64,000 bases of DNA from an uncultured Planctomycetales bacterium (GTDB lineage: Bacteria; Omnitrophota; Gorgyraeia; Zapsychrales; Zapsychraceae), in assembly GCA_964535935.1 (NCBI GenBank), contig CAZHWM010000021.1, forward strand, positions 3,903 to 67,902, written 5' to 3'. The position numbers and the translations under genes are program-made. The notes below the pieces were generated by a model. That model ran no database searches. It was given only the letters and a program-made list of their open reading frames with translations, and was not told where the DNA came from. Shown here in pieces: positions 13,518 to 60,497 of this stretch (position 1 is the stretch's first letter; each line of letters opens with the position of its first letter).

Positions 13518-14786
13518 GTGAATACTATGTATAGATTTCTTACTCACATAAAGAATAGAAATTTTTTACGGCTTTGGGTTGCTCAGCTTATTTCCCAGTT
13601 TGGGGATAGGATACATCAGCTTGCATTGGTGGGATTAGTTGCAGAAAAGGCATCATCTTCACCAATGGGACTTGCCAAACTCATGGCGTTTACTATTATT
13701 CCAGTTTTTGTGGTTCAACCGTTTGCAGGTGCATGGGTTGATCGATGGGATAGGAGGATGACTTTATTTGTTTGTGATATTTTCAGGGGTGTTTTGGTTC
13801 TGCTTATCCCTACGATTTTTATGTTTGGCAATTCTATGATACCTATATATATTATTGTGTTTCTTGTGTTTTGTTTTAGCCGTTTTTATATTCCTGCCAA
13901 GATGTCGATAATACCTGATCTTGTAGATGAGGATAATTTGTTGGCAGCTAACTCATTGGTTTCAACCACAGGTATGCTTGCCTTTGTTATAGGATGTGCA
14001 TTGGGTGGTTTTTTTATAGATTGGTGGGGTGCAAGAACAGGTTTTTTTATAGATTCTGCTACGTTTTTTGTTTCTGCTATAGTAGTGTTTTCAATAGATA
14101 TGTCTAAGTCATTATTAAAACAGGAGGTTATTGTCAGTGCTAAGCAGGTAGTGAAGATAAAGAAAACGATATGGCGAGAGATAAAAGATGGATTTGATTA
14201 TCTTAAAGAGCATAAAGAGATACGATTTATTATTGATATGTTATTTGTTCTTTTGGCAGCAGCAGGGGCAGTATACGTTGTTATAATTATCTTTGTTCAG
14301 GAGGCATTTCATAGTGTGACAAAACACCTTGGTATATTAGCAGTGTGTGTGGGGGTTGGGCTTTTATTAGGTGCTGTTGGTTATGGTAAATTTGGTAAGC
14401 GTTTTATGTGGGCTAAGACTATATTTTTTTGTTTGATTTTTGGAGGTGTTATGCTGATTATATTTGCATTAGTAGTATATAATTATCCAAATATTTTTGT
14501 TTCCATGCTGCTTTCTTTACTTTTAGGTTTTATTATAGGACCGATTTTTATAGCATCAAATACCATTGTGCATATAGTTAGCGATGAGCAGATGCGAGGG
14601 AAGGTATTTAGTGCACTTGAGATAGTTATACATTTTGCTTTTCTTTCATCTATGTTCATAAGTTCATGGCTTGCTGGCATTGTAGGCAGATTATGGATAT
14701 TAATATTTGTTGGTATTATTATAACCTTTATTGGCATAGTAGGCTTTATTCGTATGGGGAAAGGAAGACTTGCATTCCCTGTATAA
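13518..14786 (+). CDS. MFS transporter
   Basis: 422 aa, ~12 TM. MFS loop 2-3 motif-like GAWVDRWDRR. Start may be ATG 13527 rather than GTG 13518. Confidence 0.8.
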   Translation: MNTMYRFLTHIKNRNFLRLWVAQLISQFGDRIHQLALVGLVAEKASSSPMGLAKLMAFTIIPVFVVQPFAGAWVDRWDRRMTLFVCDIFRGVLVLLIPTIFMFGNSMIPIYIIVFLVFCFSRFYIPAKMSIIPDLVDEDNLLAANSLVSTTGMLAFVIGCALGGFFIDWWGARTGFFIDSATFFVSAIVVFSIDMSKSLLKQEVIVSAKQVVKIKKTIWREIKDGFDYLKEHKEIRFIIDMLFVLLAAAGAVYVVIIIFVQEAFHSVTKHLGILAVCVGVGLLLGAVGYGKFGKRFMWAKTIFFCLIFGGVMLIIFALVVYNYPNIFVSMLLSLLLGFIIGPIFIASNTIVHIVSDEQMRGKVFSALEIVIHFAFLSSMFISSWLAGIVGRLWILIFVGIIITFIGIVGFIRMGKGRLAFPV

Positions 14787-48674: not shown

Positions 48675-49403
48675 ATGATATCAGACAGAATTGTAGTTAT
48701 AGACGATGATCCCCGTGTTATAAAAAGTATAAAATTGGTGTTAAGGAAATATGAGATAAAGGAATTTTTGGATAGTGAAAAGGCTTTGGCTTTTTTCAAA
48801 AAACCCAGAGATATAAAAATCGTTCTTTTAGATGTGATGATGCCGGGAATAGATGGACTTAGTCTACTTAGTGAGATAAAACGATATAATAAGGATATTT
48901 CTGTTATTATAATGACGGGCTATGGGACAAAAGAGATAATCTTAGATGCTTTACGCTCTCATGCAGATGATTTTATAGAGAAGCCGTTTAATTTTGAAGA
49001 TTTAATAGAACGAATAGACAGACTTTTACAGGAAAAACGATATTCTTTTAAGGAAAGAGAGGATGATAAAGGTAAAATTGATAAGATAAAAAGTTTTATT
49101 CGGAGAAACTATCAACAGGCAACGCTTGATATAATAGCAGAAGAGATGTGTATGAGTAGTAAATATTTAAGCAGGATGTTCAAAAGGAAAAATGGAGATA
49201 GTTTCAGGGATTTTAAGTTAAAAATCAAAATAGCAGAAGCAAAGGCTATGTTAAAGGATACGTCTTTTAATGTAAGTGAGATCGCATTAAAATTAGGCTA
49301 TAAAAATCCAGAATCTTTTATGCGTATCTTTAAACGTATTACAAATTGTACTCCTTTAGAATATCGTGCTAAAATTAGGGCAGAAGAGCATAACTCCTCA
49401 TAA
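48675..49403 (+). CDS. response regulator with AraC-type HTH output (YesN-like)
   Basis: 242 aa, RBS agaggagag. Receiver IVVIDDDP..VLLDVMMPGIDG..EKP. C-terminal AraC/XylS HTH (LGYKNPESFMRIFKRITNCTPLEYR). Confidence 0.9.
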   Translation: MISDRIVVIDDDPRVIKSIKLVLRKYEIKEFLDSEKALAFFKKPRDIKIVLLDVMMPGIDGLSLLSEIKRYNKDISVIIMTGYGTKEIILDALRSHADDFIEKPFNFEDLIERIDRLLQEKRYSFKEREDDKGKIDKIKSFIRRNYQQATLDIIAEEMCMSSKYLSRMFKRKNGDSFRDFKLKIKIAEAKAMLKDTSFNVSEIALKLGYKNPESFMRIFKRITNCTPLEYRAKIRAEEHNSS

Positions 49404-49581: not shown

Positions 49582-50844
49582 ATGAAAGATTTTTGGTATA
49601 AACAGGAGGATTGTCGTTTGGATATGAGAAATTTTGAAAAAGATTATTCTGTTAAGAGTGTTAGAGAGATTCTTTCTGATTTACAGAAAGAGAAGGAAAG
49701 ATTTAGGCGTAGTGAGACATGGCGTAGGCATGTTTTAGATGCAGCAACGCAGTTTGCAATTATAGCTACATCTCCGGAAGGGGTTATCACTATTTTTAAT
49801 TCTGGGGCAGAGAAGATGTTAGGGTATTCAGCTTTGGAAGTGATAGGTAAACTTAGATTAGAAGATCTCCATGTTGAAGATGAGCTTTTATCGTATGGAA
49901 GAGAATTGAGTAGAGAATTTGGTTATGAGATAAGAGGTTTTGCTGTTTTAACTATAAAACCGCAATGTGAAGGATATGAAGAGAGGGAGTGGACATATGT
50001 AAGGAAGGATGGTAGTCACTTACCAGTCAATTTGATTGTGACAGTAGTACGTAGTGATGCGGGAGAGATTATTGGGTTTTTGTCTGTTGCACAGGATATC
50101 TCAAGGCGAAAAAAGGCGGAGCAGAGACAGATAGAGTTACAGGAGGAATTATTGCGTTCAGAAAAACAACTAACATTAGGTCGCCTTGCTGCAGGGATGG
50201 CACATGAGATAAATAATCCGGCTGCAGCGATTAAGAGTGATTTAAGTATGTTATGGAAACTTGTATCTGCTTTACCAGAATCTCCTCAAAAACAGAAAAT
50301 GCTTAATATTATTGAGCGTGATAGAGAAGCTATCTCCCGTATAGAAAGTATAGTTATAGCAGTAAAAGGTGCGTATCGCCCAGAACAGTGGCATTTTGTG
50401 GATATTAACAAAGAGATAGACCTGCAATTAACTATTTTACATCGTCTATATAAGGGGCGAATAGAAATTGTTAAACAATATGATAATTTACCTCAAATTA
50501 AGGTATATGGCAGCGAAATAGGACAGGCAATATTGAATCTTTTGACTAATGCTATAGAGGCAATAGAAGATGAAGGGAGAATAACTATTACTACTAAAAA
50601 TATGTTAGATAAAATAACAATAGATATAGCTGATACAGGTACAGGGATATCAGAAGATATTCTTCCTCATATATTTGAATCATTTTATACCACAAAAGGG
50701 AAGAGTAAAGGAACAGGTTTAGGACTTTCTATGTCAGCACAGATAGCTAGGCGGCATAAAGGGAGACTATATATATCAAAGAATATTGTTGGTAGGGGGG
50801 CGACTTTTACATTAGAAATATCCAAGGATGCGGAAAATGGATAA
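49582..50844 (+). CDS. cytoplasmic PAS-domain sensor histidine kinase
   Basis: 420 aa, RBS ggagga. PAS region, H-box GMAHEINNPAAAI, N-box LNLLTNAIEA, G-boxes DTGTGI and GTGLGLSMS. Confidence 0.85.
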   Translation: MKDFWYKQEDCRLDMRNFEKDYSVKSVREILSDLQKEKERFRRSETWRRHVLDAATQFAIIATSPEGVITIFNSGAEKMLGYSALEVIGKLRLEDLHVEDELLSYGRELSREFGYEIRGFAVLTIKPQCEGYEEREWTYVRKDGSHLPVNLIVTVVRSDAGEIIGFLSVAQDISRRKKAEQRQIELQEELLRSEKQLTLGRLAAGMAHEINNPAAAIKSDLSMLWKLVSALPESPQKQKMLNIIERDREAISRIESIVIAVKGAYRPEQWHFVDINKEIDLQLTILHRLYKGRIEIVKQYDNLPQIKVYGSEIGQAILNLLTNAIEAIEDEGRITITTKNMLDKITIDIADTGTGISEDILPHIFESFYTTKGKSKGTGLGLSMSAQIARRHKGRLYISKNIVGRGATFTLEISKDAENG

Positions 50845-52588
50845 ATATTCTATCTTAGTTGTAGATGATGATGAGGCAGTAGCAGATTCATTAAGGGATT
50901 CCTTAGAGATGTTGGATATATATAAGGCTACTGTTGTAAATAGTGGTAAGGAAGGAATAGAAGAGGCAAAAAAGAATAGATTTGATGCCTTCTTAGTGGA
51001 TCAAAAGATGCCAGGTATGGCAGGAGTAGAATTTATATCTGAATTGGTAAAGATAATAGATGATCCTCTCATTTATATTATTACGGCAGAAGATGACGGA
51101 GTTGCTCTTGCTGAAGCGGAAAAAGAAGATGAGAGAAGATTGCCTATAAAGAGATATGTGCCCAAACCATGGCCCCCAGGGCTTTTTTCTGTAGATCTAA
51201 GAGAAGATTTGCGAGAGCGTGATTTAAAAAGGAATATGCTTGAACAGATAGAAAAATATTCTTCAGAACAGAAACAGGTTCAACATGCCTTGGATGAGGC
51301 AAATACCAAACTAAAAGAACAGCAGATAGAATCAAAGAGGTTGTTACAAAAGACAGCTAAGAGATATAAGCTTTTAGCAGAGGTATCTCCTGTAGGTATA
51401 TTTTATACTGATGCTGACGGTAGTTGTATTTATGTAAATAAGAGATGGCGAGAGATTACAGGGATTATTCCACGTATGGCATTAGGAGAAAAATGGACTA
51501 AGTGGCTACATCCAGAGGATAGAAAGAGAGTAGAAGAAGAATGGAACAGATGTTTGAGAGAAGGGATTTCTTTTAAGATGGAATTTAGGTTTCAGTCTTC
51601 AGAGGGAAGGGAAAGATGGGTGTTAGGGCAGACAAAGGCGGATTTTGGTAGTAATAAAGTTATATTGGGGCATGTTGGGACTATTACAGATATTACTGAT
51701 AGGAAGAAAGCAGAAGAGGCCCTTTGTAGATATAGTGAAAATTTAGAGGAGTTGGTAGCAGAACGTACAAAAGAGGCATATGAAGCTAAAATAAAGGCAG
51801 AAAAGGCCAATCAGGCTAAGACAGAATTTTTGGCTAATATGGGACATGAATTAAGGACGCCTATGCATGGGATACTGAGTTTTTCAAAATTTGGTTTAGA
51901 GAAGAGTAAATCAGAAGGATTGGAGGTTTTACATCGTTATTTTAAAGAAATACATGAGAGTGGACAAAGGTTGCTTTCTTTATTAAACGATTTGCTTGAT
52001 TCTGAAAAGTTAGAGGCAGGTAAGGTTAAATATGAATTTAAGGAACATGATTTAATTAATGTAATCAAAAACGTTGTATCAGAATTCAGTACCTTGTTGA
52101 AAGAAAAGAATATTAATATTAAGTTAGATCTACCTAATAAAAAATGTATTGCAGTGATAGATAAGATTAGAATGATGCAGGTTGTAAGGAATTTATTGTC
52201 TAATGCTGTCAAGTTTTCCTTAGATGGAGGAGAGGTTGTAATTACGTTAAAAGATAAAGGTGGCATTTTTATATTGTCTATAGCTGATAGAGGTATAGGA
52301 ATTCCAGAGAATGAGTTAAATCAGATATTTGACAAATTTGTTCAGAGTAGTAGTTCTAGGACAGGTGCAGGTGGTACAGGGTTGGGACTTTCTATATGTC
52401 GACAGATAGTCTGGGCGCATTATGGAGAGATTTGGGCAGAGAATAGATATGGTGGGGGAGCGATATTTTATGTAGTTATTCCTAACAATCGTTCTGGGAG
52501 GAAAAAGTTGGGACAGTTGTTGGTGGAAAACGGTATTATAACACATCAGCAGTTAGCGGAATTTTTGAAAAAGCAAAGAGAAGATTAG
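50828..52588 (+). CDS. receiver-PAS-histidine kinase hybrid with C-terminal MshEN-like tail
   Basis: 586 aa (ATG 50837 is an alternative start). N-terminal receiver ILVVDDDE..FLVDQKMPGMAG..PKP, coiled coil, PAS. H-box GHELRTPMHGI, N-box NLLSNAVKFS, G-box GGTGLGLSICR. Then a 28-aa tail KKLGQLLVENGIITHQQLAEFLKKQRED. Confidence 0.85.
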   Translation: MRKMDKYSILVVDDDEAVADSLRDSLEMLDIYKATVVNSGKEGIEEAKKNRFDAFLVDQKMPGMAGVEFISELVKIIDDPLIYIITAEDDGVALAEAEKEDERRLPIKRYVPKPWPPGLFSVDLREDLRERDLKRNMLEQIEKYSSEQKQVQHALDEANTKLKEQQIESKRLLQKTAKRYKLLAEVSPVGIFYTDADGSCIYVNKRWREITGIIPRMALGEKWTKWLHPEDRKRVEEEWNRCLREGISFKMEFRFQSSEGRERWVLGQTKADFGSNKVILGHVGTITDITDRKKAEEALCRYSENLEELVAERTKEAYEAKIKAEKANQAKTEFLANMGHELRTPMHGILSFSKFGLEKSKSEGLEVLHRYFKEIHESGQRLLSLLNDLLDSEKLEAGKVKYEFKEHDLINVIKNVVSEFSTLLKEKNINIKLDLPNKKCIAVIDKIRMMQVVRNLLSNAVKFSLDGGEVVITLKDKGGIFILSIADRGIGIPENELNQIFDKFVQSSSSRTGAGGTGLGLSICRQIVWAHYGEIWAENRYGGGAIFYVVIPNNRSGRKKLGQLLVENGIITHQQLAEFLKKQRED

Positions 52589-52621: not shown

Positions 52622-53713
52622 ATGACAAAATTAGATAGAATGCTTGTGGTAGATGATGACCGAACTAATATAGAGGTGTTGAAAGAGATATTTTGTAATC
52701 GGTTTAATCTTTTAGTGGCTAGATCAGGAGAGGATGCTGTGACCATTGCTAAGGAATGGATTCCGGATATTATTTTATTAGATATCATGATGCCGGGTAT
52801 AGATGGATACGAAACGTGTCGCAGAATGAGGGCAATAGAAGGGTTAAAGTATTCTAAGATAATACTTGTTTCAGCAAAAGGGATGTTAGAGGATAGATTG
52901 AAGGGATATAAGGTAGGTGCTGATGATTATATAATGAAGCCGTTTGATGATGAAGAAATAAAGGCCAAAATAGAGGTGTATTCTCATTTAAAACATATAG
53001 AAGAAGTGAATAGATTGAAGAACGATCTGCTTATGCTTTTTTCCCATGAGACTTGTACACCACTTAATACTATTTTAGGTTTTTCTGAATTGTTAAAAAA
53101 ACGAAAGGAAGATCCTCAGGCATCAGAAAGATGTATGAAGTGTGTTGAGTGGGCACATATGATAGAAGAATCAGGAAAGGATTTATTAACATTTGTTAAG
53201 AAGACATTATTTTTGTGTGATTTGCAAAAAGGATATGAACTTTCTATTGAGCCTTGTTCTATGTCTGATATAATAACAGATGCAGTTGCAGATGCTAGGA
53301 GTAATAGTTTTAATACAGAGGTGTCTATTATATTCGTTAATAAGATTAGCAGGAAGATTTATTTAGATTCGAATCTATTTTGCAGGGCGATTTCTTATGT
53401 TATAGCGAATGCTATAAAGTTTTCTCCGGAAGGTGCTACAGTCTCTATTTTTTCTGAGGTTAAAAATGATAGATGTATTGTAAGTATTTCAGATCAAGGA
53501 GAAGGAATAAACGATGAAGATAAAGATAGAATATTTGAGTCGTTTTCTGTTCAGGATGTATGTAGACATTCGAAAGGACAAGGATTAAGCCTTGCTATAG
53601 CCAGAAGAATAGCACGGTTGCATGGGGGAGAGCTTTCTGTGCATAATAATGAAGAAAAAGGCGCGTGTTTTATATTTGATATTCCATTAAAGATATCATC
53701 AGGGAGTAATTAG
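52622..53713 (+). CDS. receiver-histidine kinase fusion protein
   Basis: 363 aa, RBS gggag. Receiver MLVVDDDR..ILLDIMMPGIDG..MKP. H-box-like FSHETCTPLNTILGF. ATPase region SDQGEGI and GQGLSLAIARR. Confidence 0.8.
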   Translation: MTKLDRMLVVDDDRTNIEVLKEIFCNRFNLLVARSGEDAVTIAKEWIPDIILLDIMMPGIDGYETCRRMRAIEGLKYSKIILVSAKGMLEDRLKGYKVGADDYIMKPFDDEEIKAKIEVYSHLKHIEEVNRLKNDLLMLFSHETCTPLNTILGFSELLKKRKEDPQASERCMKCVEWAHMIEESGKDLLTFVKKTLFLCDLQKGYELSIEPCSMSDIITDAVADARSNSFNTEVSIIFVNKISRKIYLDSNLFCRAISYVIANAIKFSPEGATVSIFSEVKNDRCIVSISDQGEGINDEDKDRIFESFSVQDVCRHSKGQGLSLAIARRIARLHGGELSVHNNEEKGACFIFDIPLKISSGSN

Positions 53714-53795: not shown

Positions 53796-53960
53796 ATGAA
53801 GAAATATAAATGTCCTGTTTGTTCTTATATATATGATCCAAAAGTAGGCGATCCAGATTCTGGTATAAAGGCAGGTGTGGCATTTGAAGATATCCCTGAT
53901 GATTGGGTATGTCCTGAATGTGGGGCATCAAAAAGCGAATTTGAACTTATAGAAGAATAA
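53796..53960 (+). CDS. rubredoxin
   Basis: Not in the ORF track (54 aa). RBS aaggaggg lies 8 nt upstream. It translates as [54 protein letters not shown], with the two CxxC knuckles (CPVC, CPEC) and the classic rubredoxin consensus. Confidence 0.9.
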
Positions 53961-53964
53961 ATTT

Positions 53965-55146
53965 TTATTTTCGATAAACATATGTGAGAGAACTATTAGT
54001 TTTGATGTGATTAACATTTATGTTTGTTGTCGGTCTTTGGAGGAGATAACCTTGTCCTGCGTCTACGTGAGAATTAATTACTGTTTGCAATTCTTTTTTT
54101 GTCTCTATCCCTTCAGCGATACATAATATATTATTTTCTTTACAAAAAGCTACTAAGAATTTGATAAGACTTTTTTTATATATATTTTTGTTGCTTTCTG
54201 CGATGATATGCCGGTCTATTTTTATCATTTCAGGCATGATTTCTACAATAGAATCTAAACTTGCATACCCTCCTCCTACATCATCAATAGCAAATTTAAA
54301 CCCTAGATTTCTATATCTCTTTAATTTGTTGTAGAATAAATCAAAATCTTTTACCGCAGAACGTTCAGTTATTTCAAGAACAGTATTCTCTATAGGTATA
54401 TTAGTGGTGTTAAATATTTCTTTGATTTCCTCAAGAGATGTTCCTTCAATAAGATATGGATCGCAATTAAGGAATAAAGTTTTATCTCGGAGGTTTTTGG
54501 AGGCATATCTTAATGCCTTTTTCCATGATGTTATTTCTAGTTCATGATAGAAACCCAATCGTAAGGCTAACTTAAATAATAATTCAGGGTTTGATAATTT
54601 AGTTGATGTAGGTCTGCTTAATACTTCTAATCCTATCCATTCAAATGTTTTCAGGTTAAATATAGGCTGGAAAAAAGGGGTGATCAACTCTTGATCGACA
54701 ATTCTTCTTATTTCAGATACCAAGTGTTCATTATTTGTATGGAGATAAGGGGTTCTATATGTTTGACTACGCCGTATAACCGCCTCCATTCTTGCTATAA
54801 GTTCTTCACATTCAAAAGGTTTAGTAATGTAATCATCTGCGCCAAGGTATAATCCTTCAATTATATCTTCAGATAACGCCCTAGCACTAAGTATGATGAT
54901 TGGGATATGTGAACTTTTGTCACTATTTTTTAATTTTTTGCATAATTTGAAACCGTCAGTATCTGGTAATGAAATATCTAATAAAATAAGGTCTATTTGT
55001 GTAGATATTTGTTTACTAGCTTCTCTTCCTGAATATGCAAAATCCACTTCATATCCTCTAGTTGATAGTAACATACGTAATGTATTTACCAAGGATATAT
55101 TATCTTCTATTAAAAGTATTTTTTTATTCGAAGTAGACTTTCTCAT
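53965..55146 (-). CDS. response regulator with EAL-domain c-di-GMP phosphodiesterase output
   Basis: 393 aa. Receiver ILLIEDN..ILLDISLPDTDG..TKP. EAL-domain blocks FQPIF, LEITERSAV, FAIDDVGGGYASL, IKIDRHII, CIAEGIETKKE and GQGYLLQRP. Confidence 0.9.
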   Translation of the reverse strand: MRKSTSNKKILLIEDNISLVNTLRMLLSTRGYEVDFAYSGREASKQISTQIDLILLDISLPDTDGFKLCKKLKNSDKSSHIPIIILSARALSEDIIEGLYLGADDYITKPFECEELIARMEAVIRRSQTYRTPYLHTNNEHLVSEIRRIVDQELITPFFQPIFNLKTFEWIGLEVLSRPTSTKLSNPELLFKLALRLGFYHELEITSWKKALRYASKNLRDKTLFLNCDPYLIEGTSLEEIKEIFNTTNIPIENTVLEITERSAVKDFDLFYNKLKRYRNLGFKFAIDDVGGGYASLDSIVEIMPEMIKIDRHIIAESNKNIYKKSLIKFLVAFCKENNILCIAEGIETKKELQTVINSHVDAGQGYLLQRPTTNINVNHIKTNSSLTYVYRK

Positions 55147-57054: not shown

Positions 57055-57190
57055 TGACGATAATGGCAAACCCATCGTAAGGTGGGGGCCCCGTATATAA
57101 TATGTTTGCTGTATACGGGCTCCGGGAACTTCCCGGAGGCAAAGCTATAGGGTCCTTATTTTTAAGGATAGCCTAGCTGCCGAACCAAGC
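57055..57190 (+). promoter_or_regulatory. c-di-GMP-I (GEMM-I)-like riboswitch aptamer candidate with internal insertion
   Basis: GGCAAACC + 6-bp helix CCCAUC/GGUGGG capped by the GNRA loop GUAA (57065-57086). Later GGAGGCAAAGCUAUAGGG-UCCUUA-UUUU-UAAGGA-UAGCCUAGCUGCCGAAC (57135-57185). Closing pairing GGCA/UGCC. The two halves are separated by two extra hairpins (57090-57119, 57120-57138). Confidence 0.5.
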
Positions 57191-57236: not shown

Positions 57237-57269
57237 AGGCCTGTCCTTATAAAAGGACAGGCCTTTTTT
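57237..57269 (+). terminator. rho-independent terminator (expression platform of the leader)
   Basis: Perfect 10-bp GC-rich stem aggcctgtcc / ggacaggcct, 8-nt loop ttataaaa, then a T-run (57264-57269). It lies 35 nt upstream of the pseudopilin ATG. Confidence 0.85.
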
Positions 57270-57303
57270 GTTGTTAAAGAGGGTTGGGGGGAGGTATTTT
57301 AAT

Positions 57304-57741
57304 ATGCAGTTGGATGTTAGATTAAAAGAATGTCGAGGGATTTCTTTAATTGAGGTTTTACTAAGTGTATTTATTTTGTCAGTTGCAGTGATAGGAGTTA
57401 TTCGCATATATTATTTCGCAGCATATGAGATTAACCTTGCAAGGCATAGTGCCATGGCTGTTAATTTAGCTCAGGCTAGACTTGAGGAACTATTAAATAC
57501 AAAATATAACCATTTAGATACAGCGGATTTTCCTATATCTGAAAATAATGAGGATGGTTTTGTTCTTGATCCTAATGAGAATTTGAATTGTGGTATGGAT
57601 ACGAAACTTTATAGTATAGGGACTGAAGCATATATGGCTGTTGTTACTGTGTGGTGGCAGGAACCGTTCATGGGTGCTCAACGGGATGTGTCCCAGACAT
57701 TACGTACAATAATCACTGATTATGAAGGAAGTGGAGCATGA
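57304..57741 (+). CDS. prepilin-type N-terminal cleavage/methylation domain protein (PilV/GspI-like minor pseudopilin)
   Basis: ATG 57304 after RBS ggggggagg (the track TTG 57268 would overlap the terminator T-run and start only 4 nt after its stem). Class III signal peptide ECRG/ISLIEVLLSVFILSVAVIGV. Confidence 0.8.
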   Translation: MQLDVRLKECRGISLIEVLLSVFILSVAVIGVIRIYYFAAYEINLARHSAMAVNLAQARLEELLNTKYNHLDTADFPISENNEDGFVLDPNENLNCGMDTKLYSIGTEAYMAVVTVWWQEPFMGAQRDVSQTLRTIITDYEGSGA

Positions 57742-58397
57742 ATATGGAAGTTAATCCAATTATTGGAAAAAGTATAAACAATAGAGTTGGTTTTACTTTA
57801 ACTGAATTAATGATAGCAGTCCCACTTGCGGTTGCTATATTGGGACTTACCTTGGGGACATATATTAGTATGGATAAGATGGTCCCAGGTGGTATTGCAC
57901 AGGTGGTTGTTCAATCTTATGGACGGAGTATTTTGGATAGAATAGCACAAGATATACGTTTGGCAACAGAGGCTTACATAGAAGATGCCGGGGATACTCT
58001 TGTGTTAACCATTGATCCGAATGGTACATATGATATGAGTTCGGATGATAGGCATATTGCTTATTATATATCAGGAGAGAAATTATTTTATGATCCTAAT
58101 ATATATGTATCGGGGGATGAGGTTGTATTGTTGGATGGAGTAGGGCATGCGGTGTGGAAAGAAGGGGGAAAACAGATTTTGCCATATTTTCAACGGGATG
58201 ATGAAAGGTGGTATAGATGGCATGATGGTGAATATTTTAAGTGGGGCGGGCACGGCAATGCTTATATGTATGGGGGCAATAATGGCAATATTATAATTAT
58301 ATCTTTTTGTATTCGTAAACATAGTGGAATATTCGCTGATAAGACTTGTAATATGACCACTTCTGTAAAGATGAGAAATACGGATGAGGATATATAG
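57738..58397 (+). CDS. prepilin-type N-terminal cleavage/methylation domain protein (PilW/GspJ-like minor pseudopilin)
   Basis: ATGA overlap with the upstream gene, RBS ggaagtggag. Class III signal peptide NRVG/FTLTELMIAVPLAVAILGL. Confidence 0.75.
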   Translation: MNMEVNPIIGKSINNRVGFTLTELMIAVPLAVAILGLTLGTYISMDKMVPGGIAQVVVQSYGRSILDRIAQDIRLATEAYIEDAGDTLVLTIDPNGTYDMSSDDRHIAYYISGEKLFYDPNIYVSGDEVVLLDGVGHAVWKEGGKQILPYFQRDDERWYRWHDGEYFKWGGHGNAYMYGGNNGNIIIISFCIRKHSGIFADKTCNMTTSVKMRNTDEDI

Positions 58398-58422
58398 CTT
58401 TTATAAGAAAGAGAGGGCTATG

Positions 58423-59943
58423 ATGGACAGAAAAGGTTCTACATTATTGATAGTTTTGAGTGTGATGTCTTTGCTGTCTGTATTAGGTGCTTCTTTGTTA
58501 AAGGTTACAATAAATGATGCAGTAAATGCACGTAGGCAAGTGGATAGTCATAAGGCATTATTTCTTGCTGAGGCAGGATTACAACGTGCAGCATGGTTGA
58601 TAAAACAGGATGATGGTTCTTTAAAGACAAAGGATCATACTGAGAGATTTAGTTTTAAAGATGGCCAGATAGTAGTTAATGATGCAGGTGAGGTTACTAT
58701 TAATATCCATTATTTAGGTAACGATAGGTATAAGGTAACTTCTTCTTCACAATATGGTTCGGTTTCAAAGACATTGTATTCTTTGGATCAGGCAAATGCC
58801 CCTGCTAAGGTATTTGATTATGTTTATTTTATTAATAATTGGGGGTGGTTTTACGGTAGTCCTATCACCTCTTATGGAGACGTGCGATCTAATGGCAGAT
58901 TTGATTTCAAATATGGGCCTACTGTAAACAGCGATATATATGCAGGCAACGAGGTGGGTATTAATGGAACAGTTTATGGTTATGGTAGGCATGAACAGTA
59001 TCAGCATGGCCATTCAGAGACATTGCCTATGCCTAATTTGAATGATTTATCTTATTATAAAAATAATGCTACAGGTACGATTAAAATAGATGGCCATATT
59101 CTAGTTAATGGAGTATTAGGTGATAATTCAGGAGAGAAAGACAATATTGTCCTTATAGGAACACAAAATCATCCTATTGAAATAAATGGGACAGTGGTTA
59201 TAGAAGGCGATGTAGTTGTTTCTGGCTATATTACAGGGCAAGGCGTAATCTATTCAGGGAGGAACATATACGTGCCTAATAATATCATTTATGTTAATCC
59301 ACCTTCAGCGGAACGGCCGGAATATCCAGTAGATGCACCTCCGGATTGGAAAACTGTTGATACATTTGTCGCAGAGAATCAAACCAAAGATTTAGTTGGA
59401 TTTGCTGCAAGCGAAAATATTGTTTTAGGAGACTATACTGCCTCAAAAAATCAATGGATTTTTAATTATTATTTATATTATATGGGGGACGAAGACGTTG
59501 GTATAGATGGTATTCCAGATACAGGAGATGAAGGTGAAGGGGATGGTATATTTGAAGCTCGGTATGAGGACCTTGATGGAGATGGTATAAAAGACGATCA
59601 TTATGTTTTTGCTGATCTGGATACACAGGTAAGTATAACGGATTTTGCTAATGTACCAGCAGGAGTAAAGAAATATTCTGATATAGCTACTAATCCAGAT
59701 ACCTATACACCAGGAGAGACGACAATAGATGGGATATTTTATACAAACCATGCTATAACTGGCAGGCCAGAAGGCGCATGTACTATTAATGGGGCGATTA
59801 TTTCTAAGGATGAAGCTATAGGAATTTCATCTATTGTTATGAATTATGATTGGAGGATTAATTCAAGATATAGTGAAAACGGCAAAAATATAATTGATTT
59901 GCCTTTTGCAAAAAAAGTAACAATATTAAGGTGGTGGGATTAA
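58423..59943 (+). CDS. large PilX/GspK-like pseudopilin-associated protein with acidic Ca-binding-type loops
   Basis: ATG 58423 after gagaggg. N-terminal RKGSTLLIVLSVMSLLSVLGASLL is typical of PilX_N/GspK (no cleavage Gly-Phe). Repetitive beta-rich middle. The segment GDEDVGIDGIPDTGDEGEGDGI...DLDGDGIKDD lies at 59482-59602. Confidence 0.6.
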   Translation: MDRKGSTLLIVLSVMSLLSVLGASLLKVTINDAVNARRQVDSHKALFLAEAGLQRAAWLIKQDDGSLKTKDHTERFSFKDGQIVVNDAGEVTINIHYLGNDRYKVTSSSQYGSVSKTLYSLDQANAPAKVFDYVYFINNWGWFYGSPITSYGDVRSNGRFDFKYGPTVNSDIYAGNEVGINGTVYGYGRHEQYQHGHSETLPMPNLNDLSYYKNNATGTIKIDGHILVNGVLGDNSGEKDNIVLIGTQNHPIEINGTVVIEGDVVVSGYITGQGVIYSGRNIYVPNNIIYVNPPSAERPEYPVDAPPDWKTVDTFVAENQTKDLVGFAASENIVLGDYTASKNQWIFNYYLYYMGDEDVGIDGIPDTGDEGEGDGIFEARYEDLDGDGIKDDHYVFADLDTQVSITDFANVPAGVKKYSDIATNPDTYTPGETTIDGIFYTNHAITGRPEGACTINGAIISKDEAIGISSIVMNYDWRINSRYSENGKNIIDLPFAKKVTILRWWD

Positions 59944-59945
59944 TT

Positions 59946-60497
59946 ATGAAGATATTTAGATTTGTTTTTTTTATTGGGATTTTTTTCTTTTTTCCTGTTT
60001 CTATTTTACATTCTTTTATTATAGATAAAGGTAATATTTCCTCGATGGATACATTAAACTATAATAACCATTCATCATCTACCAAAGATGCTAAACAAAA
60101 GAAAAAACTAATTAAGGAGACTAATCCAGCCTCTGGCAGTAGTGCTACAAAAAGAGATAATAGTTTTCAAGATGCAATATATAAATTACAAAGAGATGCT
60201 ATGTTAAAGGAAAAGAAACGGTTATTACGCCAGTCCGCAGACAGAAGAAATAAGTTGCATTCATATATTAAAACCAATAAACATCCCGATTTAAAATACA
60301 GTTATTTTAATACTTCTCAGAATATAAATAAATCAGTGCGTAGTTACAAGATTGTGAGTCATAAAAAAGAAAAAGATACTTCTAAAGAATTATCAACAGT
60401 TGATAGGATTGCAAATTTTTTGGGATTTATAGTATACATTACGTTTATAGGGGCTATTATAATGTTTTTCGTTAAAGGGGGAAAAACGGCAAAGTGA
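59946..60497 (+). CDS. hypothetical bitopic protein (N-terminal signal/anchor and C-terminal TM), last gene of the pseudopilin operon
   Basis: ATG 59946 after aaggtggtggg. Hydrophobic N-terminus, K/S/N-rich low-complexity middle, C-terminal helix FLGFIVYITFIGAIIMFFV. Confidence 0.4.
   Translation: MKIFRFVFFIGIFFFFPVSILHSFIIDKGNISSMDTLNYNNHSSSTKDAKQKKKLIKETNPASGSSATKRDNSFQDAIYKLQRDAMLKEKKRLLRQSADRRNKLHSYIKTNKHPDLKYSYFNTSQNINKSVRSYKIVSHKKEKDTSKELSTVDRIANFLGFIVYITFIGAIIMFFVKGGKTAK

Follow-up and report, generated by a model that had tools for sequence, protein, structure and literature searches.

A single C-terminal MshEN-type hairpin on HisKA sensor kinases and its possible role in a split c-di-GMP site

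A sensor histidine kinase encoded on a 64,000-nucleotide stretch of contig CAZHWM010000021.1, from an uncultured Omnitrophota bacterium (assembly GCA_964535935.1; the whole stretch is referred to below as the window), ends in one copy of the 24-residue helix-turn-helix motif that, as a tandem pair, makes up the cyclic di-GMP (c-di-GMP) receptor domain known as MshEN or GSPII. The element very probably represents a genuine, selected MshEN-type hairpin module, and it is not unique to this gene, being a recurrent module found on many kinases. We propose that two such tails could come together to form one c-di-GMP site split between two chains, a mechanism to which we assign a probability of roughly 0.4. 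Somewhat more tentatively, the tails may mark a widespread and so far unnoticed class of HisKA kinases that would sense c-di-GMP by a split MshEN site, with one hairpin contributed per subunit and the ligand zipping two catalytic (CA) domains together.

The last 28 residues of the kinase, KKLGQLLVENGIITHQQLAEFLKKQRED, are encoded by nt 52502-52585, after which a stop codon ends the open reading frame (52588). The gene, its domains and the parts of its tail are as follows.

50828..52588, + strand: sensor histidine kinase gene, REC-PAS-HisKA-HATPase_c plus tail; 586 aa from the first ATG (open reading frame list, Pfam)
50852..51124, + strand: N-terminal receiver (REC), aa 9-99 (PF00072, E=1.7e-16)
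51362..51706, + strand: PAS sensor domain, aa 179-293 (PF08447, PF08448, PF00989)
51815..52021, + strand: HisKA (DHp) dimerisation/phospho-acceptor domain, aa 330-398, H-box MGHELRTP (PF00512, E=6.5e-17)
52160..52486, + strand: HATPase_c (CA) catalytic domain, aa 445-553 (PF02518, E=6e-30)
52484..52504, + strand: basic linker NNRSGRK, 7 residues, aa 553-559, joining the conserved Pro552 to the motif
52505..52576, + strand: single MshEN/GSPII-type 24-residue hairpin motif KLGQLLVENGIITHQQLAEFLKKQ, aa 560-583 (pattern match, PDB matches)
52577..52588, + strand: final three residues, RED, and the stop codon

Since the Pfam HATPase_c match ends at aa 553, the tail lies after the ATPase domain, as the initial annotation had it; the final beta-strand of that domain spans residues 545-552 (DSSP on the AlphaFold2 model). 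The kinase is of the HisKA class, having a HisKA domain with the phospho-acceptor histidine and an HATPase_c domain with the N, G1, F and G2 boxes, and residues H340, N455 and G516-G520 are invariant in the kinase alignment (A3). HisKA kinases are homodimers that associate via the four-helix bundle of the DHp domain. An AlphaFold2 monomer model built from a 70-sequence alignment has a mean predicted local distance difference test score (pLDDT) of 86.5, and supersedes a poor run on the single sequence (pLDDT 42). In this model, the tail is predicted to fold as a helix (561-567), a turn at G569 and a second helix (573-585), at pLDDT values of 67-84. Foldseek comparison with the PDB finds the structures of HK853, WalK and VicK, and these matches concern the kinase core and not the tail.

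The motif was located with the strict pattern [RK]LG..[LVI][LVI]..G[LVI][LVI]....L...L..Q, which matches only once in the six-frame translation of the window, at 52505-52576, with K at position 1. Going by residue composition, chance alone would yield about 1e-6 to 3e-6 such matches per window, and none occurred in 300 shuffles. The fit to the full MshEN motif with K in place of R, as had been claimed from the sequence, is thus borne out: KLGQLLVENGIITHQQLAEFLKKQ agrees at every position with the extended consensus (R/K/L)LGxx(L/V/I)(L/V/I)xxG(L/V/I)(L/V/I)xxxxLxxxLxxQ, a form to which the consensus was widened by the authors of a study on PilF (PMC11731258). The lysine is no defect and could even favour binding, because the GSPII-B domain of PilF, of which a complex with c-di-GMP has been solved, has K167 at motif position 1 and binds c-di-GMP with a dissociation constant of 6 nM, while the K167R variant binds more weakly (PMC11731258). 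About nine of the 24 hairpin residues are hydrophobic. A scan with a profile of kinase tails found no second hairpin copy in the 64-kb window, the three neighbouring kinases included, so that pattern and profile agree with the earlier claim of a single copy at the extreme C-terminus. Two other readings, a split gene and a second motif in the downstream gene, were considered and ruled out, as the next open reading frame opens with a normal REC domain 34 nt past the stop.

To place the tail among known structures, a 34-residue tail was compared using phmmer with all 177,635 distinct PDB sequences, among which amphipathic helices abound. The tail alone matches Geobacter PilB (5zfr, 2.1e-8; 5tsg, 8.8e-8), Vibrio cholerae MshE (5HTL, 1.7e-5) and Thermus thermophilus PilF (8.1e-5), and all 13 matches up to E=10 are to PilB, MshE or PilF type IV pilus assembly ATPases. 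The match therefore stands out against the amphipathic-helix background, which the initial annotation had named as one possible refutation. A profile of 11 kinase tails reaches 1.5e-14 for PilB 5tsg, where it aligns to both PilB motifs, and 3.7e-10 for MshE 5htl. Its only unrelated PDB matches are myc-tagged constructs that accidentally resemble the tail at the epitope EQKLISEEDL; some kinase tails (e.g. that of P0057) hold EQKLISQEDL or EQKLISKEEL. The window tail scores 16.1 bits against PilB motif I and 17.0 bits against motif II, near-equal values as expected for an element that has to play both roles. The specific PDB matches and the full consensus fit together indicate that the tail is homologous to the MshEN hairpin, and on this comparison of sequences we regard it as a true relative of that hairpin and not as a generic amphipathic helix.

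The search with Pfam PF05157 (MshEN_C/T2SSE_N1) that had been suggested as a check gives no match to the window protein at E<=1, the protein ending 3 residues past the motif. This test is uninformative, because in P0260 (aa 5-91), a control in which two hairpins are clearly present, the 90-position Pfam MshEN model aligns with residues 60-91, downstream of the hairpins; scans with PF05157 would therefore miss proteins that have only the MshEN_N part. Another model, PF14332 (DUF4388), weakly matches the P0260 hairpin at profile positions 48-77, and matches the hairpins of the other proteins tested (P0134, P0140, P0264) at the same positions, in P0134 and P0140 above the gathering score. The window protein stays below the 25-bit gathering threshold of this model, which gives the full-length sequence 14.3 bits and the isolated tail 17.4 bits. 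Its match spans only profile positions 49-76, a segment that multi-hairpin proteins match too.

The residues of the hairpin that are best conserved are those that touch the ligand in MshEN. According to Wang et al. (PMC5013675), c-di-GMP is contacted by motif positions 1, 2, 3, 17, 21 and 24. Among 27 distinct kinase tails, position 1 is K in 23 and R in 3, position 2 is L, I or V in all 27, positions 3 (G), 21 (L) and 24 (Q) are invariant (27 each), and position 17 is L in 26; the most conserved positions of the tails are thus the six contact positions. In addition, the basic residues ahead of the kinase motif resemble K5, R7 and K8 of MshE, which precede its R9. One feature is specific to the kinases, namely a Glu at position 8 in 25 of the 27.

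All 27 tails are single and lie at the extreme C-terminus, with 0-10 residues, most often 3, after the motif Gln. The spacer from the conserved Pro at the end of the CA domain to motif position 1 is rich in K and R, and of 29 tail-bearing kinases 25 have one of exactly 7 residues. The tail count is a lower bound, standing at no fewer than 27 distinct tails in at least five kinase-core lineages. Tails are present on REC-PAS kinases (P0023, P0028, P0033), on 7TMR-DISM kinases (P0057, P0096, P0098, P0105), on a further kinase (P0021) and on many metagenomic fragments, as well as on REC-only kinases in two metagenome-assembled genomes (MAGs) of Ectothiorhodospiraceae (L034, L058), in which the protein ends exactly at the motif Gln. 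Searches with a CA-plus-tail profile add about 17 tail-bearing fragments, which are short, do not hold full architectures and carry almost no taxon names. The tail-bearing kinases form at least five groups by core identity, and the next-nearest relatives of each group have no tail; gain or loss of the module has therefore happened more than once.

Hairpins of this kind are also found outside the kinases. Of 80 confirmed loci that match the tail peptide pattern in species-representative genomes, 48 are PilB/T2SSE N-termini and 2 are kinase C-termini, which places the tail close to motif I of canonical MshEN domains. Against 1.84 billion representative proteins, the tail profile finds at least 6010 proteins at E<=1e-3; the 150 matches listed all have 2 to 11 matched stretches and are no census of single-copy kinase tails. 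In the multi-hairpin proteins, whether the copy number was odd or even varied with the score threshold. Some contain 7 to 11 tandem hairpins at a spacing of about 28-32 residues, and one of these, P0121 (1184 aa), has Hpt, bacterial TSP3 and dockerin matches in addition. Small proteins consisting of only 2 or 4 hairpins exist as well (P0264, P0140).

Several peculiarities of individual tail-bearing genes should be mentioned. In the HATPase_c domain of the two Ectothiorhodospiraceae kinases (L034 4444-6081; L058 4372-6081), about 110 inserted residues separate the N box from the G1 box, and the inserted stretch looks receiver-like (…LLVVDIDG…); Pfam aligns no more than profile positions 23-109 of HATPase_c, to aa 421-515. 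The kinase stop in L034 is followed after 3 nt by a REC-HDOD gene. A 118-aa open reading frame at L087 8001-8357 (P0277), on a 171-kb contig and adjoining a kinase/receiver gene block, consists of the C-terminal half of HATPase_c and the hairpin tail. It may be a truncated gene, a gene with a mis-called start, or a free-standing protein made of a CA fragment and a hairpin.

The tail of the window kinase is kept in orthologs at 90% (P0002) and 72% (P0003) identity, both of which have the canonical Arg at position 1. Over 25 tail codons, the window gene and its 90% ortholog differ by about 16.5 synonymous and 3.5 non-synonymous changes. The proportion of non-synonymous differences (pN) is 0.058 in the tail and 0.049 elsewhere in the gene, while synonymous sites have reached saturation. 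Judged from these substitutions, the tail is under purifying selection.

The mechanism that we regard as the most likely starts from the geometry of the known domain. The two halves of MshEN_N superimpose at 0.8 Å and have been called a pseudo-dimer, and each of the guanine pockets uses both hairpins, through Leu10 of motif 1 and Leu54 and Leu58 of motif 2 (PMC5013675). As each pocket needs both hairpins, a lone hairpin cannot form a c-di-GMP site, and with one motif per kinase chain, a complete site would therefore require a second chain. The downstream subdomain is dispensable for binding in MshE, since MshEN_N 1-62 binds c-di-GMP without MshEN_C/T2SSE_N1 (Wang 2016). Two kinase tails might then pack as a symmetric four-helix bundle that clamps one molecule of two-fold-symmetric c-di-GMP, the tails belonging either to the two subunits of one kinase dimer or to neighbouring dimers. 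Such pairing would tie two CA domains together, and could alter how freely they reach the phospho-acceptor histidine and, with it, the balance between kinase and phosphatase activity. The adjacent putative REC-EAL phosphodiesterase described below could be among the outputs here, and this would create a feedback on c-di-GMP levels.

Several observations weigh against this proposal. Many T2SSE_N domains do not bind c-di-GMP, XpsE being one example, and in the GSPII-A domain of PilF small deviations in sequence and structure abolish binding. The turn Gly at motif position 10, called highly conserved by Wang 2016, is replaced by K, N, E or R in 12 of the 27 kinase tails; the window tail has G here, and one PilB motif I has N. 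The expectation that orthologs would conserve the tail holds for the two noted above and fails for a third, at 62% identity (P0004), which has neither a tail nor a remnant of one, the downstream start codon overlapping its stop codon. The tail is therefore dispensable for the core function of the kinase. Finally, no GGDEF, EAL or HD-GYP enzymes are found among the neighbours of five other tail-bearing kinases, one of which has a REC-HDOD gene downstream, so gene context gives no general support.

The tail could instead be an interaction or oligomerisation hairpin that pairs with a hairpin of its own type or with one in a multi-hairpin or MshEN-containing protein, and clusters kinases or docks them on a partner without any c-di-GMP. 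This is a serious, though on balance unlikely, alternative: with about nine hydrophobic residues in 24 the hairpin needs a partner surface, potential partners are at hand in thousands of proteins with 2 to 11 copies in many architectures, some T2SSE_N domains are pure protein-binding modules, and c-di-GMP genes are not consistently nearby. It does not account well for the identity of the near-invariant positions, which are the c-di-GMP contacts and include Gly3 and Gln24, residues that in MshEN touch the ligand and not the hydrophobic core, nor for a basic leader like that of MshE. The same conservation pattern argues against an intramolecular lid or autoinhibitory element, in which the hairpin would fold back onto the CA, DHp or N-terminal REC domain of its own chain. 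The short, fixed linker speaks for a set placement of the tail with respect to the CA domain, and the moderate AlphaFold2 confidence for the tail in a monomer model is compatible with such docking, but the sensor parts of the tail-bearing kinases are unrelated (REC-PAS, 7TMR-DISM or REC only), which leaves only the CA or DHp domain as a possible common dock. We consider a lid improbable.

A site formed in trans, with the tail and the hairpin of a different protein binding c-di-GMP between them and thereby recruiting the kinase to that partner, draws on the same evidence for ligand competence as the split site, and hairpin-containing proteins are abundant. The window and the neighbouring kinases contain no other hairpin, however, and no conserved partner gene lies beside the other tail-bearing kinases, so that we rate this arrangement as likewise improbable. 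The data contradict the reading of the tail as an amphipathic helix that fits the motif by chance, or as a neutral addition without function, and this reading can be nearly dismissed. The missing match to the Pfam MshEN model and the tailless ortholog would be in line with it, but that model does not cover the hairpin region even in the control protein, a chance match is expected at about 1e-6, the PDB matches are specific to PilB, MshE and PilF, synonymous changes far outnumber non-synonymous ones, and the tail recurs at the same position in at least 27 kinases.

At the locus of the window kinase, components of c-di-GMP signalling are present. The kinase belongs to a two-component block that comprises, in order, a dCache kinase, a REC-AraC regulator (48675-49403), a PAS kinase, the tail-bearing kinase and a REC kinase, followed by a rubredoxin gene and a convergent REC-EAL gene. 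The features downstream of the kinase are listed here.

52622..53713, + strand: REC-HisKA-HATPase_c kinase gene without the hairpin motif, 34 nt past the stop of the tail-bearing kinase (Pfam; synteny kept in the related MAG L004)
53965..55146, - strand: REC-EAL protein, putative phosphorylation-controlled c-di-GMP phosphodiesterase (PF00563, E=9e-41; PF00072)
57055..57184, + strand: c-di-GMP-I riboswitch upstream of a pilin-like gene cluster (Rfam RF01051, 40.1 bits, cut-off 35)

The EAL gene and the GEMM-like riboswitch that the initial annotation had placed near the kinase are thus both present, and the link with c-di-GMP genes seen at this locus does not extend to the tail-bearing kinases in general. 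The riboswitch lies about 4.5 kb downstream of the kinase. It precedes a pilin-like cluster (57268-60497), the first open reading frame of which bears an N_methyl prepilin motif, whereas Pfam matches nothing in the others. The whole arrangement, REC-EAL gene and riboswitch included, is conserved in the related MAG (L004), where the riboswitch is found at 14235-14362 (36.3 bits) with a 63-nt insertion in the first hairpin loop. The conserved presence of both elements indicates that c-di-GMP is in use in this organism. In the REC-EAL protein, the EAL signature reads EVL (…GLEVLSRP…), and the DDVGGGY, EGIE and GQGY-type motifs are kept; from these residues, the protein looks catalytically competent. 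Its nearest named NCBIfam model is the PvrR-type REC-EAL phosphodiesterase, which it matches well below the cut-off. The rubredoxin gene (53796-53960, 54 aa), located between the REC kinase and the REC-EAL gene, is likewise conserved in the related MAG, a hint that the signalling block may receive redox input.

On its upstream side, the tail-bearing kinase gene begins 8 to 17 nt before the PAS-kinase gene ends (50828-50844), an overlap that suggests translational coupling; public gene calls place the start at 50837 instead of at the first ATG, 50828. A protein identical to the window kinase (P0001) is present in public assemblies, and the only named relatives of its core, at about 50% identity, come from Candidatus Omnitrophica MAGs.

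If the split site is real, the kinase tail would be the first half-site MshEN receptor, with an MshEN site assembled from two chains, and c-di-GMP would act as a dimerisation or cross-linking signal and not as the filler of a pre-formed pocket. A two-chain site would bear on the evolution of the duplicated MshEN domain, and the kinases would offer a present-day model of what the MshEN four-helix bundle descended from, prior to duplication. Few two-component kinases (CckA and ShkA) are known to be controlled directly by c-di-GMP, each with its own type of site, and the tail would add a third, structurally distinct mode. Furthermore, a 24-residue tag that marks c-di-GMP-responsive kinases would allow prediction from sequence in many uncultured lineages.

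Compared with the MshEN/GSPII domains of MshE (5HTL), PilF (GSPII-B) and Geobacter PilB, the kinase tail shares the 24-residue helix-turn-helix motif and all six ligand-contact residues. PilF GSPII-B even has the same K at position 1, and MshE a similar basic leader. These domains have two tandem motifs with a spacer of about 5 residues, which form a 53-residue four-helix bundle within one chain, usually at the N-terminus and followed by an MshEN_C/T2SSE_N1 subdomain, whereas the window kinase has one motif at the extreme C-terminus and no C-subdomain. The tail agrees with MshEN in motif, similarity and secondary structure but lacks the tandem second motif, and is best described as a half-MshEN module.

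MshEN fusions reported by Wang et al. involve REC, HD-GYP, CheA, CheX, cyclases, Ser/Thr kinases and glycosyltransferases. Their table of MshEN architectures, in which CheA is the only histidine kinase, contains no single C-terminal hairpin on a HisKA kinase, in line with the suggestion that the architecture is undescribed. Neither did we find a description of it on HisKA kinases in the full-text literature, the coverage of which is incomplete and gives no proof of novelty. The closest counterpart is CheA of Aeromonas veronii (Wang 2016, Suppl. Table 4), a histidine kinase that, like the one here, carries a fused MshEN-type element. That protein is of the CheA class (HPT, H-kinase_dim, CheW) and carries a complete two-motif MshEN_N inserted before the dimerisation domain, whereas in the window a single hairpin follows the CA domain of a HisKA-class kinase. 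Escherichia coli NfrB shares the C-terminal placement, with an MshEN module on an enzyme, a glycosyltransferase, that is under local c-di-GMP control; it differs in having a full MshEN domain and in its enzyme class. A likeness in concept is seen in Caulobacter CckA and ShkA, histidine kinases on which c-di-GMP acts directly, changing the kinase/phosphatase state or freeing domains. CckA binds the ligand on its CA domain and ShkA at the REC1-REC2 linker, neither by an MshEN motif. The effect that we propose on the kinase/phosphatase balance would thus be analogous to that in CckA in its outcome, though not in its structure.

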